This document shows positions 4,406 to 10,854 of a stretch of DNA of 64,000 bases, in pieces (position 1 is the first letter of the stretch; each line of letters starts with the position of its first letter). The position numbers and the translations under genes were made by a program. Under the pieces are notes generated by a model, which saw only the letters and a program-made list of their open reading frames with translations, was not told the origin of the DNA and searched no databases. Source of the stretch: an uncultured delta proteobacterium (lineage in GTDB: Bacteria > Desulfobacterota > Binatia > UBA9968); the NCBI GenBank assembly GCA_963745035.1, contig CAVUVW010000013.1:896001-960000 (forward strand). Reading direction: 5' to 3'.

Positions 4406-5318
4406 CTAATCGGCGATCGACAAAGCTGTCCGGTGATAGGAGAGATCGACGTACTTCTCCACGGGGGGAATAGGATGCGCCAAATAACCGAGCTCGGCTC
4501 GTAACTGGAGAGCGGCGGTAACACCCGACATATTCAAGACGGCGTTTGCGTAAAGACCGTGCTTCGGATGGAGTAGGGCATCTAAAGTATGTGCGGCGGC
4601 GGCTCCGTCGATTTCATTATAGCGAGCGAGAATGTCGAGGCACGCTCGGCGATTCGGTCTCTCGAAACACCACTGCGTCGCTGCCGCATACGCTCGAATG
4701 TACCGGACGAGTCGGTCCGGATGCCGCTCCGCCCAACGCCGACTCGCGGCGCCGCACGTCCCTTGGTAAGACGGGACCATCTCGAAGTCTCTGGCAAGCA
4801 GATGACACCCCGCCCTCAGAGCATTCAAGACGAAAGGTTCAGTCAACAAGAGTCGCAGCGATTTTCCCTTCCATCAATGCGCGGTAGCGGCTTTCCCACC
4901 CGCCGATTTCGATCAGCTGATAATTGTCTCCAGCAAAACCTCTGGCGTGAAGCATCCTCTCCAGCACTAAGGCAAAGCCGCTCGTCCTGGCATCAACGCC
5001 GATGGATCTGCCGAACAGCGCGTCGATGGATGCGCAATCCGGAGCGCCTACTAGAGTAAAAAGCCCGCTATGCAGACCCATAAAAATGAAGAGATCGGAG
5101 CCGTCATCGTTTTCAACAGCGGCGATGATGTCATCCGCGCCGGTATGGCCGATATCATATTGGCCCTCTTTAAGAGCTTGGCTGATGTATAAGGAGCCTG
5201 GTGTGTAAGCTGTTTCGAGAGCGAGCCCGTGCCGGGCAAAAATCCCCGTCTCGATTCCCGCATGAACGGGCAGGTTGTAAGCGGCGCGAAACTGAATCAG
5301 CTTGAGTGTTTCTGTCAT
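4406..5318 (-). pseudogene. NMT1/THI5-like ABC substrate-binding protein, split by +1 frameshift near 4849
   Basis: ORFs 4839-5393 and 4406-4849 join as ...KIAATL|LTEPF after removing one base; likely start MTETLK at 5318. Confidence 0.75.
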
Positions 5319-5594
5319 ACAGATGCGTCTCGCAATGCTCCTATCACGCCGCGCGAGAAAGCGACAACTCTGAGTTGTTCGTTCGTTCCGCATGCCTTTG
5401 AGAGGGAATTTAGGCGAATTCTAAACGGACCCTCATTAAATTTTCAGGTGATAAGAATAACACGAAGATTTGGAGGTTCGCACCAAGCTGCCCGGTAATT
5501 TCATTGGAACCGCCACGAGAGCACCTAAGTTGACAGTTATCTTACTTTCGATTACTGCTCGCGTAGTTCAAGCAAAGAATTTGGAGGTGAGCTT

Positions 5595-6157: not shown

Positions 6158-7123
6158 ATGGCGAAAATGCAGTTCGGCGTTTTGTTACCCCACTTTGGCA
6201 AAGAAGCCTCACCGTCTCGGATCATCGACGGCGCCAAAATGTGCGAGGAGCTGGGATTTCATTCCGTATGGGTGAGAGATCATTTGATTTGGCATCCGCA
6301 CGGCATGGAAAAGTCAGGCCTCAAATTCGTCGAACCCATCGTCACGCTTTCGGCGGTGGCGGCGGTGACGAAAAAAATCATTTTGGGCATCGCCGTGCTT
6401 GTTCCAGTGCGTTGGCCGCTCAAAGTCAGCCAGGATCTCGCGAGCCTTTCCTACATTGCGGGCGGCCGGGTGATCGCCGGGATGGGGTTGGGATTTAATC
6501 CCGCCGAGCTTGCGACCGTCGGCTTGCGGATCGAGGATCGCGTCGAAATCCTGCGCGAGACCGTCGAGATCGCGCGGCTGATATGGAAAGAGAATAATGC
6601 GTCCTACAAGGGCAAGATATTCTCGTTCGACAACGTGACCATCGAGCCCAAGCCCGTCGAACCGATCCCGATCTTTTGCGGCGGCAGTACTCGCGCCGCG
6701 ATAAGACGGGCCGCGGAATACTGCGACGGCTGGATTCCCGGTCGGGTTCCCATGGCGACTTTTGATGACAGGATACGGTACTTGCGGCAACTGACCGACA
6801 GGAAGATTACTTTGGGCAATATCCCGATCACGCGCATCGATAAGGACCGAAAAAAAGCTCGGGCAAGTATCGACGTTGCGGCGCTTGCGGAGAGCTCGGA
6901 GGGAAACAGCCACTGGATAAAGCCGCCTTCCGGAAAGTTTCAGACGATCGAAGATCTCGAAGGTCTGTTGATCGTAGGGAACCCCGATGACTGCGCTGCG
7001 GAGATCGAAAAGTTCCGCGCACGAGGCGTCGAACACTTGGTTTTCGATTTGAGACTACAATACGACCGCTACGAAGAGAGCTTGGAACTGATCGGTAAGG
7101 AACTACTTCCGCGGTTCGAGTAA
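6158..7123 (+). CDS. LLM-class flavin-dependent oxidoreductase
   Basis: EELGFHSVWVRDH, GGRVIAGMGLG, IEPKPV, CDGWIP. Confidence 0.9.
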   Translation: MAKMQFGVLLPHFGKEASPSRIIDGAKMCEELGFHSVWVRDHLIWHPHGMEKSGLKFVEPIVTLSAVAAVTKKIILGIAVLVPVRWPLKVSQDLASLSYIAGGRVIAGMGLGFNPAELATVGLRIEDRVEILRETVEIARLIWKENNASYKGKIFSFDNVTIEPKPVEPIPIFCGGSTRAAIRRAAEYCDGWIPGRVPMATFDDRIRYLRQLTDRKITLGNIPITRIDKDRKKARASIDVAALAESSEGNSHWIKPPSGKFQTIEDLEGLLIVGNPDDCAAEIEKFRARGVEHLVFDLRLQYDRYEESLELIGKELLPRFE

Positions 7124-7184: not shown

Positions 7185-7228
7185 AGCGACAACTCGGTCC
7201 GTAACCGGCGAGACTAAAGAGGGCCTAA

Positions 7229-7663
7229 TTATTTTTTCTTGCCGGGTTCCGCTTGGTAACCTTGGTCTTTCCAATTGCTAACGGGACAAAATGTCGTGCT
7301 CGTAAATCCGAGGTCTTCGGCTAGCTTCGCAGCCTGCGAGCTTGATGCTCCGGTGCCTCACGTGAAAACGATGTAGGTCTGCGTCGAGATCTTTTTCAGA
7401 TAACCTTCGAGCTGCTCCAACGGAACGTTGATGGCGCCCGGGATGGTTTCTTTTTCGAAATTGGCCGGCGGCCGGACATCGATGATCATCACCGCGCCGG
7501 CATCGACTTGCTTCTTTAGCTCGTCGGCGGGCGTCTGTTTGGCGCCGACCGCCCACTTCGTTTTCGGATCTACTTCGTACTTGCGCTGCTGTTGGGCGAA
7601 GGACGAAGCGGCAACGAGTGAAACTACGGCGCCAATGGCCAGCCGCGCGATCAATGATTTCAT
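7229..7663 (-). CDS. Secreted rhodanese-like protein, probable selenoprotein (UGA at 7358-7360), 144 aa
   Basis: AAAGGAG RBS, signal peptide, IIDVRP..F...IPGAINVP, then YIVFT-TGA-GTGASSSQAAKLAEDLGF...NWKDQGY...KKK-TAA in frame. Confidence 0.85.
7323..7342 (-). promoter_or_regulatory. Candidate bacterial SECIS hairpin
   Basis: mRNA AGCU-CGCA-GGC-UGCG-A-AGCU starting 15 nt after the UGA; apical GCAGGCUGC resembles E. coli fdhF GCAGGUCUGC. Confidence 0.65.
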
Positions 7664-7775
7664 ATACGCTCCTTTCAAGGATTGGTTAGACGTGTCGCAG
7701 GCTAACCGGAAAAGCTTACCGACGTCAATCCCGGGCAAGCTGAGGCGGTTAAAAACGACCGCCCCGCATTCGCGC

Positions 7776-8765
7776 TTAAAGCCGGAGCTTGTATTTCCGT
7801 TCGATCTCCTCGACGTATCCGCTCTTGACCACCTTAGTCAGAATACGCTGATCCAGCAGTTCCTCGACATTGAACTTCATGATTTTGGGATCGCGCAGCG
7901 CGATGGCGTCCTGGGCGGTTTTCAAACCCTTGACGGTGACAAAGGTATAGGGCGTCAGATCCTCGAGCAAATATTTATAGCCGAGCTCGGCGAGTTGCCG
8001 GTCCACCTTGAGATGTTTTTGCAGAATGGCCTGGCCGCGCTCTTTCTGCGCGCGCATGATCGCGCTCGCCTCGATGAGCGCTTTGATGACGTTCTCCACG
8101 GTCTGCGGATTCTTCTGAATGAATGCCTCCGAGGACATGAACGGGCTCGAGGGCAGAGGGATCTTGCCCAAGTCGAACAAAACTTTGACCCCGAGCGCCT
8201 GCAGCCGCGCGGACTGCAATCGATCCAACGCCGCGCCGTCGATGATGCCGCTCGCCAAAGATTGGGCGATCACCGTGCTATCGCCGATAGCCTGAATATT
8301 GATATTGTCTTTTTGCGGGTCGAGACCCATCTCTCGCAGCGACAGCATGGTGAGGCTCCAGAGCAGACCGCTGAAGTCCTGCACGCCGATTTTCTTGCCG
8401 CGCAGATCACTGGGCTTGGTGATCGACGGCGCCACGAGAAAATCGTAGGACGCCCGCTCGGCGAACAGCGAGAGGATGATTTTGAGCTTGGCCCCTTGCG
8501 CAGCCGCCGTGAGCATACTGGAGGCGCTGCCCCGGACAAACTGCACCTCGTTGGAGACCAGAGCCGTGACTTGGAGAGGAGCGCTGCGCACGGTGACGAG
8601 GTCCGCTTCCAGTCCATGCTTGGCAAAAATGCCCTCCTCCTTGGCAAGCCAAACCGGCGTGCCAGACGCCGACACCCCGGAGTAAGCGATTCTAATCGGC
8701 TCAGCGCTGGCGGGCGCGACAAACAAAGCGAGAGCTAAAGGGATCCAGAATTTTGCAGCGACCAT
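7776..8765 (-). CDS. NMT1/THI5-like ABC substrate-binding protein
   Basis: Signal peptide, PVWLAKEEGIFAKHGL, DLRGKKIGV. Confidence 0.85.
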   Translation of the reverse strand: MVAAKFWIPLALALFVAPASAEPIRIAYSGVSASGTPVWLAKEEGIFAKHGLEADLVTVRSAPLQVTALVSNEVQFVRGSASSMLTAAAQGAKLKIILSLFAERASYDFLVAPSITKPSDLRGKKIGVQDFSGLLWSLTMLSLREMGLDPQKDNINIQAIGDSTVIAQSLASGIIDGAALDRLQSARLQALGVKVLFDLGKIPLPSSPFMSSEAFIQKNPQTVENVIKALIEASAIMRAQKERGQAILQKHLKVDRQLAELGYKYLLEDLTPYTFVTVKGLKTAQDAIALRDPKIMKFNVEELLDQRILTKVVKSGYVEEIERKYKLRL

Positions 8766-9019
8766 GGGGATTGCCCTCCTGCACACAGAGAAGAATGCAT
8801 GCTGCTGGATTTGCGCAATTCGCCTTACCAATCAACGTAGCCACTACTAACACAGCGCTCGTTGCCCCATCAATCAATAAAACCTTATCCCTTTCTCCCA
8901 GCCGCGCAGTGAGGATAGAAAGGCCATAATTGCTCGCGCTCTCTGCACGCAAACAAAAATCGCGGGGAAATGTTCGAGAAGCCCGACCCGGCAGCCGGTT
9001 GGAAATGTCCAGCGCAGCA

Positions 9020-9532
9020 CTAAAGGATGATACTCACGGCGCCGTGCTCGCTCAGCGCTTCCAGGTCGAGAACGGCTTTCCGGTGATGGATCTTCAGCTC
9101 TCCGTCTACCCGTTTCAGTCTGTGCTCGTACCACCCGATATAGGGACTCGATTCGGCCATGCGCAAACGATAGACGATAAACGAGGAAGTCACGACGATG
9201 GCGCCGTCCTCTACTTTGATTCGTATATTGGAAATGAAGTGCCGGGTGCGCGACGAAGGATATTCTCTGTGACCGTGGCGGCTCTTCAGCCTTTCCACGC
9301 GAGCGCGCAGCCGCACCATGTCGTCGTCGATAAACACCAGGTCTTTGCGGGGATCTCCGTCCGGGAGATCCGTGGTCGGGACCAGATATCTGCCGTCGGC
9401 GGTGAAAAGTGCCAACCACTCATCCAGCCGCCAGGCGTCCAGTAGAGCCGCCTCCTGATAAAGAAACTCCTCCACCGACTCGCGCAAAGTGGCTGCGCTG
9501 CCCTGGTTTCTCACAGCGTTTTCGTCCGGCAT
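9020..9532 (-). CDS. Aromatic-ring-hydroxylating dioxygenase beta subunit
   Basis: EFLYQEAALLDAWRLDEWL...P.SRTRHFISN. Confidence 0.92.
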   Translation of the reverse strand: MPDENAVRNQGSAATLRESVEEFLYQEAALLDAWRLDEWLALFTADGRYLVPTTDLPDGDPRKDLVFIDDDMVRLRARVERLKSRHGHREYPSSRTRHFISNIRIKVEDGAIVVTSSFIVYRLRMAESSPYIGWYEHRLKRVDGELKIHHRKAVLDLEALSEHGAVSIIL

Positions 9533-9546
9533 GACTGCTTTCGTTG

Positions 9547-10854
9547 TCAGCGGGCGACCGCCGCTTTCTGCCGAATCACCGGATCGTTGGTTTCAACTTT
9601 CCCCAATCCTGAGAGATGGCCGAACCACTGGCGCCAGAACGCGCGGAGCTGAAGCTCGTCCTCGGCGATCGCTTCCCGGTGCATGCCTCTGGATAGTTCG
9701 GACCATTCGACCCCCTCGGCCTTATAACCCGCTTGACAGGATTCGATCGCTTCGACGTCGTCGGGCGTCGCGAATCCTCCCGGCCCATGGAAGGTGAGAA
9801 AATTGTCGAGCCGGCGCGCGAGGAGCTCGGGCTTCTCTTCCCTGGGGGCGAGGTGCCAGGCGGTCACGTCCATCAGGTCGGGACTTATCGGCCAGAATAT
9901 TCTTACGGTGATGTCGATGGAATCGATGATGAGGAGATTAGGATAGACCAGGAGGTTGCGGCTGATATCGGCCATATGCCGAGCCTTCTGCTCGCCGAAC
10001 TTTCGCACCAGTCCTGCGCGGATGGCGGCGATCTCCTCCTTGTTCTCTTCGCCGAAGAGCGGGCTCCAGCGAGCAATCGGCCGGCCCCTGATGCCGTCGT
10101 GTTCCTCCACCGCGTGACCGTTGCCGAGGACGAGGGCCGGCCGGCTGAATGCGGTTTGCACGCCGCTGGTGTTGATGCCCACGCTATTTACATATTCGAA
10201 GTAAGTCTTGTGCGTCGGCCTGACGTGGTATCCGTCCAGGCTGTTCTCGACCAGCAGCTTCCAGTTGGCCTTAATCGAATAGCGATTGGAACCCGGCACG
10301 ATCCGCATGCCTTTTTCGGCTTGATCGACGATCAGGTCGAGATACTCGCGAGCGCCCGCGAGATAAGTCACGAGCTCTTCGACATCGGGATTGAAGCTGA
10401 CAAAGACAAACCCGCGGTAACTTTCCACCCGCGGCGGCGGCTTGAGGCCCATCGCCGCGCGATCGAAACTATCAGGGTAGCCGGCTTCGTCCGGCACGCC
10501 GACGAGGTCGCCCTGATTGTTGAAGCTCCAGGCATGATAGAAGCACTGCAAGACGTCGGCATGCCCCTGGTCGTGCCGGCAAATCAGCGCGCCTCTGTGC
10601 GTGCATGTGTTCAGAAAAACCCGCAGTTTGCCGTCGCTGCCGCGGATAAAGAAAAGCGGCCTCCCCGCTACGTTCCGGCGCCGGTAGTCGCCCGGCTTCT
10701 CGACTTCGGATTCGTGGCACAAATACAGCCAGCATTTGTTGAAGATCCGCTCCTGCTCCATCTGGAGAATTTCGCGCGACGTCATAGCGGAGCGATGGAC
10801 TCGAAATACACCTTCGTCCGGATTGTCTATGATCAGATTTTTAGGGTCGAACAT
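9547..10854 (-). CDS. Rieske aromatic-ring-hydroxylating dioxygenase alpha subunit (p-cumate/benzoate group)
   Basis: CTHRG...CFYHAW Rieske motif; NWK...DGYH...TH; PGGFATPDD. Confidence 0.93.
   Translation of the reverse strand: MFDPKNLIIDNPDEGVFRVHRSAMTSREILQMEQERIFNKCWLYLCHESEVEKPGDYRRRNVAGRPLFFIRGSDGKLRVFLNTCTHRGALICRHDQGHADVLQCFYHAWSFNNQGDLVGVPDEAGYPDSFDRAAMGLKPPPRVESYRGFVFVSFNPDVEELVTYLAGAREYLDLIVDQAEKGMRIVPGSNRYSIKANWKLLVENSLDGYHVRPTHKTYFEYVNSVGINTSGVQTAFSRPALVLGNGHAVEEHDGIRGRPIARWSPLFGEENKEEIAAIRAGLVRKFGEQKARHMADISRNLLVYPNLLIIDSIDITVRIFWPISPDLMDVTAWHLAPREEKPELLARRLDNFLTFHGPGGFATPDDVEAIESCQAGYKAEGVEWSELSRGMHREAIAEDELQLRAFWRQWFGHLSGLGKVETNDPVIRQKAAVAR

Follow-up and report, generated by a model that had tools for sequence, protein, structure and literature searches.

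Introduction

Rhodanese-type selenoproteins, in which selenocysteine (Sec, U) is encoded by a UGA codon, have been predicted since 2004–2005. Excerpts of the studies on the Sargasso Sea (PMC1088965) and on Olavius symbionts (PMC1976440) describe three rhodanese selenoprotein genes, assigned to COG2897, and eight genes together with a UxU form, respectively. Excerpts of a 2022 review (PMC9312934) list a "rhodanese-related sulfurtransferase COG0607 (PspE)" as form 1 and form 2, and those of a 2026 review (PMC13188914) distinguish five forms: UxxS, UxxG (twice), CxU (NF041203), and TsoB with UxxxxU. Here we analyze a gene of this kind in a 64,000-nucleotide stretch of DNA (hereafter the window) from an uncultured delta proteobacterium (GTDB lineage Desulfobacterota; Binatia; UBA9968), which covers positions 896,001 to 960,000 of contig CAVUVW010000013.1 (GenBank assembly GCA_963745035.1). 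The TGA at 7360–7358 is the in-frame codon 102 of a minus-strand gene that runs from an ATG at 7663 to a TAA at 7229. Judging from its homologs, this TGA is almost certainly read as selenocysteine, and the gene very probably encodes an exported single-domain rhodanese with a catalytic Sec.

The described systems that come closest are the two UxxG forms, namely "form 2" (equal to COG0607 (PspE) form 1) and "form 4" (PMC13188914, PMC9312934). As far as the excerpted passages describe them, they share with the window protein a single PF00581 domain with Sec at the catalytic Cys position and a U-x-x-G motif, which is UGTG in the window gene and UNGG in its relatives from Vicinamibacteria. The catalogued forms and the clade of the window gene were also predicted in the same manner, by Sec/Cys pairs and a selenocysteine insertion sequence (SECIS). 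Compared by motif and by description in these excerpts, the clade may be form 2, form 4, or a further form. Neither a signal peptide nor a periplasmic location is mentioned in the searched passages of PMC13188914.

Other families resemble the window protein less closely. The rhodanese_LYCAU family ("form 3", CxU; NF041203) is likewise a small rhodanese-type selenoprotein, but the window protein scores 30.9 bits against a cut-off of 115 and has F-T-U, with no Cys two residues before Sec; a relative from Vicinamibacteria scores 39.1 bits against the same cut-off. E. coli PspE is an exported single rhodanese domain of approximately 100 residues whose catalytic residue opens a six-residue loop, as in the window protein, but it has Cys instead of Sec and lacks both the second conserved Cys and the conserved extension QQQxxYxVDP at the N-terminus; the scores with the two PspE equivalog models (TIGR02981 and NF007627) fall far short of the cut-offs, one at 30.4 (cut-off 126.3) and the other at 33.1 (cut-off 102). 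The TsoB rhodanese/DsbD fusion (NF045694, UxxxxU) gives no match with the window protein, which has a single Sec, and a relative scores 23.7 against a cut-off of 805. The window protein reaches the cut-off of no NCBIfam model, and a full-text literature search, judged by titles and the openings of abstracts, found no exported Sec-rhodanese of soil Acidobacteriota or Binatia. Rhodanese selenoproteins are thus known as a kind, and this clade is probably un-modelled. The gene leaves the knowledge of Sec decoding and of rhodaneses unchanged. What it contributes is a rhodanese that is very probably exported and has two chalcogens (U...C), an addition to the known selenoproteins of soil Acidobacteriota and of bacteria of the Binatia type. 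It also offers a compact natural Sec/Cys pair with a very well defined SECIS, with which selenium preference in a periplasmic sulfur/redox enzyme could be tested.

Results and Discussion

A rhodanese frame continues through the TGA

The open reading frame (ORF) listing shows the gene only as far as the TGA, that is, 101 codons ending in ...YIVFT. The frame stays open for 42 further sense codons (GTGASSSQAAKLAEDLGFTSTTFCPVSNWKDQGYQAEPGKKK) up to the TAA at 7231–7229, and translation with TGA as U yields a rhodanese of 144 residues. A preliminary description, made from the letters alone, had drawn attention to this hidden frame after YIVFT and proposed that its 42 codons complete a rhodanese fold behind a signal peptide, that a SECIS-like hairpin follows the UGA, that the protein carries a second Cys, and that Sec-containing rhodaneses had been reported before. 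All of its statements about the sequence are correct; the literature cited above, in the excerpts mentioned, agrees with the last point, and the analyses described below agree with the others.

The Pfam model PF00581 (Rhodanese) spans the TGA, matching residues 46–122 with 59.3 bits against a cut-off of 22.2 (E = 5.5e-16). An AlphaFold2 model built on a 32-sequence alignment has a mean predicted local distance difference test score (pLDDT) of 86.4 and a predicted template modeling score of 0.76; averaged in blocks of 10 residues, the pLDDT is 93–96 over residues 31–140 and low over residues 1–30. The modeled elements around the codon are a strand (98–101), U102 and its loop, a helix (106–117), a strand (123–125), and a helix (128–133), and AlphaFold2 and Foldseek agree on an alpha/beta rhodanese fold in which the catalytic residue directly follows the central strand (98–101). 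The top Foldseek matches in the PDB are rhodanese domains only (3tp9, 6mxv, 3gk5, 3ilm, TSTD1 6bev, and GlpE 1gmx), with query TM scores of 0.60–0.65 for a query that included the signal peptide. A sequence profile search of the PDB likewise retrieved 1yt8, 6mxv, 3tp9, TSTD1, PspE (2jtq, E = 1e-13), and GlpE, as well as Sud (1qxn) weakly.

TGA and Cys forms of codon 102 in homologs

A search of a collection of 5.8 billion proteins returned 313 proteins at E ≤ 0.001. Among the best 120 of the 313 clusters, which were classified (P0077 and P0017 by eye), 99 have their last residue immediately ahead of the TGA, 13 run to full length and carry Cys at the codon-102 position (...VFTCGTGRTSSQAAKLAEELGF..TFCPV...), two have W there (P0002 and P0003), and six are fragments or frameshifted. 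Public gene calls thus cut the protein at the UGA, and some of the shortened products are named "SseA". Because the calls end at the UGA and there is no NCBIfam model, the catalytic half of the protein is absent from databases for many soil bacteria. The two entries with W apparently come from contigs on which genes were called with TGA as Trp; their full length is fortuitous, and their active-site residue is wrong. An alignment of 24 of the listed proteins displays the Sec/Cys pair and conservation beyond it.

Relatives at the DNA level were drawn from genome contigs, metagenome contigs, and whole genomes; in one set of 58 loci, only the 23 with E ≤ 2e-30 were examined. Frameshifted loci and those with cut ends (including L026/L092, L055, L060, L062–L064, L066, L067, L071, and L072) were dropped, and the 61 loci whose frame is intact from 30 codons upstream to 38 codons downstream of codon 102 gave 44 unique segments. 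Codon 102 is TGA in 42 of them, TGC in one (L073), and CGA in one (L025 = L030). The preliminary description had predicted Cys/TGA pairs and conservation past the UGA, and both are found in the 13 Cys homologs and the 42 TGA segments with their open frames. The relative with CGA (Arg), from genome G161, has the SECIS hairpin and the remaining gene intact, and its nearest relatives (L024, L061, and L065) have TGA; the CGA reflects either a mutation that recently inactivated the gene or a mistake in base calling or polishing.

In the class to which the window belongs, seven of the 301 sampled genomes match at E ≤ 1e-10, five with TGA (G000, G199, G214, G121, and G237), one with the CGA just mentioned, and one (G096) with a distant Cys relative in a long frame. 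The gene is patchy: no match was obtained in four of the six further genomes of the genus. In Vicinamibacteria, the class of the genome with the Cys form, 46 of 301 genomes match at E ≤ 1e-15, and one in-frame TGA is found at the same position in 45 of these 46 genomes (47 of 48 matches). Together with the 42 of 44 close segments, this indicates that the Sec form is the common state of the family.

In comparisons with 15 relatives, codons +1 to +37 after the TGA, the hairpin codons left out, gave nonsynonymous rates (dN) of 0.08–0.46 and synonymous rates (dS) from 0.65 to saturated; the 30 codons upstream of the TGA give the same picture. By these substitution patterns, the part beyond the TGA is coding and under purifying selection. 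A 275-nt contig from an RNA library (run X16) spans 7239–7513 with six differences, none of them at 7358–7360, and a 76-nt contig (run X15) lies over the hairpin with zero differences. Both come from near relatives in metatranscriptome libraries, in which DNA may be present, and are no proof of transcription; they do show that the TGA is not an assembly error.

Many loci, among them L022, L023, and L038, use TGA also as the genuine terminator behind ...GKKK, where the window has TAA. The mRNA of those relatives would contain UGA as Sec and UGA as a stop approximately 130 nt apart, and the effect of the SECIS must therefore be local. In a quick unrooted tree of 85 rows and 99 columns, with many open forks and with P0108, P0127, P0184, P0187, P0218, P0261, and P0253 left out because of pattern mismatch, the close Cys clade (10 rows, including L073) is nested in a 48-row clade that otherwise consists of Sec forms. 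The relevant forks have 85–91% support, and the nesting hints at a Sec-to-Cys reversion, which it would fit.

The hairpin downstream of the UGA has the features of a bacterial SECIS

A 20-nt hairpin (AGCUCGCAGGCUGCGAAGCU, 7342–7323) starts exactly 15 nt 3' of the UGA. Two helices of 4 bp each, separated on the 3' side by a bulged A, carry a GGC loop, and the folding energy is −8.7 kcal/mol. RNAalifold, applied to 36 unique 78-nt segments, returned the consensus ((((((((...)))).)))) at the same position. The bacterial SECIS (bSECIS) model of Zhang and Gladyshev (2005), as quoted in the legend to Fig. 2 of PMC13188914, specifies a loop of 3–9 nt that has G in its two initial positions, an upper stem of 4–16 bp, a UGA-to-loop distance of 16–37 nt, and a minimum free energy (MFE) of −7.5 kcal/mol or below. 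The window hairpin lies within all four limits of the model as quoted there, with a loop of 3–5 nt (GGC or A-GGC-U, of the form N-G-G-N-N), a stem of 4+4 bp, a UGA-to-loop distance of 23 nt, and the energy given above. It resembles the quoted model in being a stem-loop just 3' of the UGA inside the coding sequence (CDS), with a small apical loop containing G-G, but differs in having a bulge on the 3' side and an unusually fixed sequence.

This fixation extends to synonymous sites. Among the 42 TGA forms, codons +7 to +11 (TCG CAG GCT GCG AAG) have no synonymous variant and a third-position entropy of 0, compared with 0.5–1.9 bits in most degenerate codons from −30 to +37. The Cys form L073 encodes the identical peptide S-S-Q-A-A-K-L with AGT TCA CAG GCC GCA AAA CTC, and this stretch folds at 0.0 kcal/mol with no hairpin, versus −8.4 to −10.8 kcal/mol in the TGA forms. 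Likewise, dS in the hairpin codons is 0–0.22 in most TGA forms and 0.52 in two with a UCUU/AAGA stem, and it is saturated in the Cys form. The SECIS-like hairpin of the preliminary description thus holds in its position, in its agreement with the bSECIS model, and in the suppression of synonymous change in TGA forms.

The hairpin occurs in three versions, all at the same distance from the UGA: AGCU-CGCA-GGC-UGCG-A-AGCU in 26 unique 48-nt sequences, with the 20 nt identical in all 26; UCUU-CGCA-GGC-UGCG-AAGA, without the bulge, in three sequences; and, in 24 sequences of the Vicinamibacteria type, GAGCUCC-C-G(U/G)GCN-G-C-GGAGCUC. In the alignment of these 53 sequences, 91.4% of the cells are paired in the first register, compared with at most 45% in controls with a slid partner. 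Between versions the register shifts, from G24/A34 (29 sequences) to C24/G34 (24 sequences), and this shift includes the synonymous change of TCG to TCC.

The genome encodes the machinery for selenocysteine

The genome searched comprises 7.43 Mb in 28 contigs, with a completeness of 92.6% and a contamination of 5.8%. The four sel genes whose search the preliminary description had suggested are all present: tRNA-Sec (selC), with 76.7 bits against a gathering score of 47 and an ARAGORN call of tRNA-SeC with the anticodon tca, and selA, selB, and selD, with 592, 347, and 385 bits, respectively. All four lie on one contig (C17), and the window lies on another (C13). We found selA in 247 of the 301 sampled genomes of the class (a tally that takes in two genomes flagged as unpublished, G208 and G213, used for no other result), in six of six genomes of the genus, and in every genome with the rhodanese; this distribution makes mis-binning an unlikely explanation. 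The selD gene (C17, around 318846; locus L018) contains one in-frame TGA in the N-terminal G-U-A-A-K motif and is thus itself a selenoprotein gene. The hairpins after the selD UGA have the loops CCA and GUU, unlike the SECIS of the rhodanese gene, and share no common motif with it.

The active-site loop, a second cysteine, and predicted export

The loop of the subclade that includes the window gene is U-G-T-G-A-S-S, with A, V, G, S, N, Q, or P at position 5. Other Sec members have U-G-S-G-R-Q, U-G-T-G-R-S, U-N-T-G-R-R, or U-T-T-G-R-S; the Vicinamibacteria type has U-N-G-G-G-R-S or U-N-A-G-G-R-S, and close Cys forms have C-G-T-G-R-T-S. The preliminary description had called the U-G-T-G-A-S-S loop without Arg unusual. 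It is indeed present here, but since the other Sec members keep the Arg, its absence is a feature of this subclade and not of the family.

The second Cys noted in that description is Cys126 (T-F-C-P-V), which is nearly invariant down to Cys relatives of 31–43% identity and is found in all Vicinamibacteria-type sequences displayed. In the profile alignment to solved rhodaneses, it takes the place of the ...(V/D)GG... that usually comes after the last strand, a site at which the family is two residues shorter. We take the motif at this site to be CH2B of the rhodanese/Cdc25 superfamily, which presumably packs beside the active-site loop, and we likewise assume that strands 98–101 and 123–125 are neighbors in the rhodanese sheet. 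On these two assumptions, a putative U102–C126 selenenylsulfide is plausible.

Residues 1–23 contain K2, R7, a hydrophobic core (Kyte-Doolittle means over 12 residues of 2.0–2.6), and S-F-A before QQQ, and the layout (...A-x-A followed by Q) is common to Sec and Cys relatives of both clades. The signal peptide claimed previously is therefore matched by a conserved layout in homologs, as judged by hand. With neither a lipobox Cys nor a twin-Arg motif, the region points to a signal peptide for the Sec translocon and a periplasmic protein, again by hand judgment. The mature N-terminus, QQQ(R/P)(K/R)Y(E/P)VDP.T..A.GA, is conserved among closer relatives and modeled with high confidence.

Proposed mechanism and alternative explanations

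The comparisons strongly support recoding of UGA codon 102 during translation, with the hairpin 15 nt downstream acting as a bacterial SECIS. The SECIS would recruit SelB and Sec-tRNA(Sec), the latter supplied through selA, selC, and selD, and the ribosome would insert Sec and translate the 42 further codons that complete the rhodanese fold. The signal peptide would route the unfolded chain via the Sec translocon and be cut after S-F-A, which would leave a mature protein of about 13 kDa. Once in the periplasm, U102 at the head of the active-site loop may attack a sulfane-sulfur donor (thiosulfate, polysulfide, or persulfide) with its selenolate and carry the sulfur as a Se–S intermediate to an acceptor, and Cys126, at the end of the neighboring strand, may resolve or guard U102 as a selenenylsulfide. 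PspE, likewise a single-domain rhodanese of the periplasm, loads sulfane sulfur on its catalytic residue and passes it on. By analogy with its relatives, we give sulfur transfer an even chance of being the function of the protein; a redox role of the selenenylsulfide is a more tentative proposal.

If the UGA were instead a true stop, the product would be the 101-residue form and the downstream frame a relic or pseudogene. The 99 of the best 120 of 313 clusters annotated as ending at this point would agree with such a stop, as would the unremarkable fold of the single RNA sequence. However, a 101-residue form would be without the catalytic residue and two secondary-structure elements, 42 unique sequences and 45 genomes of a second class keep the frame beyond the codon open under purifying selection, and the Cys homologs run straight past codon 102; we regard this explanation as extremely unlikely. 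Reading of the UGA as Trp, Cys, or Gly through a changed code or a near-cognate tRNA, with no selenium involved, would accord with the W at this codon in the gene calls of P0002 and P0003, but is hardly more credible. The selA and selB genes of the same genome are open frames with no internal stops, and the many homologs that end in TGA after GKKK indicate that TGA is a stop in these organisms. Furthermore, the homologous residue is Cys rather than Trp or Gly, and a dedicated conserved hairpin is present together with the full Sec machinery. The function is more evenly contested. A periplasmic thiol/selenol oxidoreductase that cycles a U102–C126 selenenylsulfide and carries no sulfane sulfur, for example in the reduction or isomerization of disulfides, sulfenic acids, or peroxides, would account for the near invariance of Cys126 from Sec forms to distant Cys relatives, for the position of Cys126 after strand 123–125 and of U102 after strand 98–101 (neighbors, as we assume), and for the subclade loop without the Arg typical of thiosulfate binding. 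It would also be in line with the statement, in excerpts of PMC9312934, that most predicted selenoproteins are homologs of thiol oxidoreductases. Nevertheless, all sequence and fold neighbors of known activity are sulfurtransferases, and the other Sec members of the rhodanese family keep the loop Arg, so that an oxidoreductase is possible and rather doubtful.

An exported single-domain rhodanese with a catalytic Sec is overall the best explanation, and several points weigh against it. The assignment of Sec to residue 102 is drawn from sequence comparison, and export from a signal peptide judged by hand. The Cys-form DNA control for the synonymous-site comparison is the single sequence L073. 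Strict covariation analysis of the 53 hairpin sequences found no pair changed on both sides in either fixed register; the support for the RNA structure therefore rests on suppressed synonymous change and on the register-shifted variants. Folding of the 76 nt around the UGA as a single sequence gave a z-score of −0.44 versus shuffles and an MFE structure without the hairpin, which is thus supported by comparison among homologs and not by single-sequence thermodynamics. A scan of 7200–7420 with Rfam at E values up to 10 returned only a chance miRNA match. A loop with neither Arg nor Lys, as in the subclade of the window, is unusual for a thiosulfate-binding enzyme, and no conserved gene partner that would point to a substrate was found among 17 Binatia-type places and 28 Vicinamibacteria loci.

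A more far-reaching combination of claims seems improbable to us when taken as a whole. It would make these genes a distinct, uncatalogued family of exported selenoenzymes, frequent among aerobic soil bacteria (45 of the 301 genomes sampled from the Vicinamibacteria class, and scattered Binatia-type genomes), whose members act as periplasmic U102–C126 selenenylsulfide redox catalysts on a converted rhodanese scaffold. Selection would have favored selenium since a selenol withstands the oxidizing periplasm, in which a lone catalytic thiol would be over-oxidized irreversibly, and the sole close Cys clade would have arisen secondarily from Sec by reversion.

Features and surroundings of the locus

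The features of the gene are listed in Table 1. A scan for promoters and terminators found no promoter-like site and nothing useful on the strand of the gene.

Table 1. Coordinates of the features of the predicted Sec-rhodanese gene in the window
Feature	Position	Strand	Evidence
Complete CDS of a very probable exported Sec-rhodanese, 144 codons + TAA, UGA = codon 102	7229..7663	-	TGA=U translation, Pfam, AlphaFold2, Foldseek
Shine-Dalgarno-like AAGGAG, 5-nt spacer to the ATG (7663-7661)	7669..7674	-	direct sequence reading; same start Met in homologs
Predicted signal peptide of the Sec-translocon type, residues 1-23 (MKSLIARLAIGAVVSLVAASSFA), cleavage expected before QQQ	7595..7663	-	composition, conservation
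Rhodanese homology domain, residues 46-122 (Pfam); the fold runs on to about residue 140	7298..7528	-	Pfam, AlphaFold2, Foldseek, PDB profile search
UGA codon 102, almost certainly Sec, in the active-site loop where rhodaneses have the catalytic Cys	7358..7360	-	aligned Cys/TGA homologs, RNA-library contig
Predicted SECIS hairpin AGCUCGCAGGCUGCGAAGCU, within the codons for S-S-Q-A-A-K-L	7323..7342	-	RNAalifold consensus, synonymous-site suppression
Cys126 codon, second conserved cysteine (TFCPV), end of the last beta-strand	7286..7288	-	homolog alignments, AlphaFold2 strands

Upstream on the same strand lie genes for an NMT1/THI5-like binding protein (7776–8831) and for the beta (9020–9532) and alpha (9547–10854) subunits of a Rieske ring-hydroxylating oxygenase, and a luciferase-like monooxygenase gene (6158–7123) is convergent with the rhodanese gene. 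The preliminary description had placed the gene downstream of a substrate-binding protein and a Rieske dioxygenase; the arrangement is as described, but it is not conserved in relatives and gives no information on function. Sixteen relatives with long flanks have differing neighbors, among them TctC/PrpD/HpaB sets, Tad pilus genes, and an aldo-keto reductase with a Zn-alcohol dehydrogenase and UbiD. In seven of 17 Binatia-type places (the window counted), an NMT1-type protein lies near the rhodanese, in varying orientation, and genes for such binding proteins are plentiful in these genomes. Since the neighbors are not conserved, the context is uninformative on function and a role in an operon is unsupported.

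In Vicinamibacteria, a pyrroloquinoline quinone (PQQ)-dependent dehydrogenase lies beside the Sec-rhodanese in six of the 28 loci (L142, L145, L146, L148, L150, and L151), and two of these loci, L145 and L150, have a frame with two CxxCH heme motifs in between. These loci are G+C-rich, and many of their ORFs have no Pfam match, so that some ORF picks are possibly spurious. The PQQ and heme neighbors could be a periplasmic redox neighborhood of that subclade.

Elsewhere in the window, two abutting ORFs of 184 and 147 amino acids occupy 4406–5393 on the minus strand. The 184-residue ORF matches an NMT1/THI5 binding protein over its N-terminal two thirds only, the 147-residue ORF has no Pfam match, and the pair looks like a single binding-protein gene that a frameshift or a stop has broken in two.

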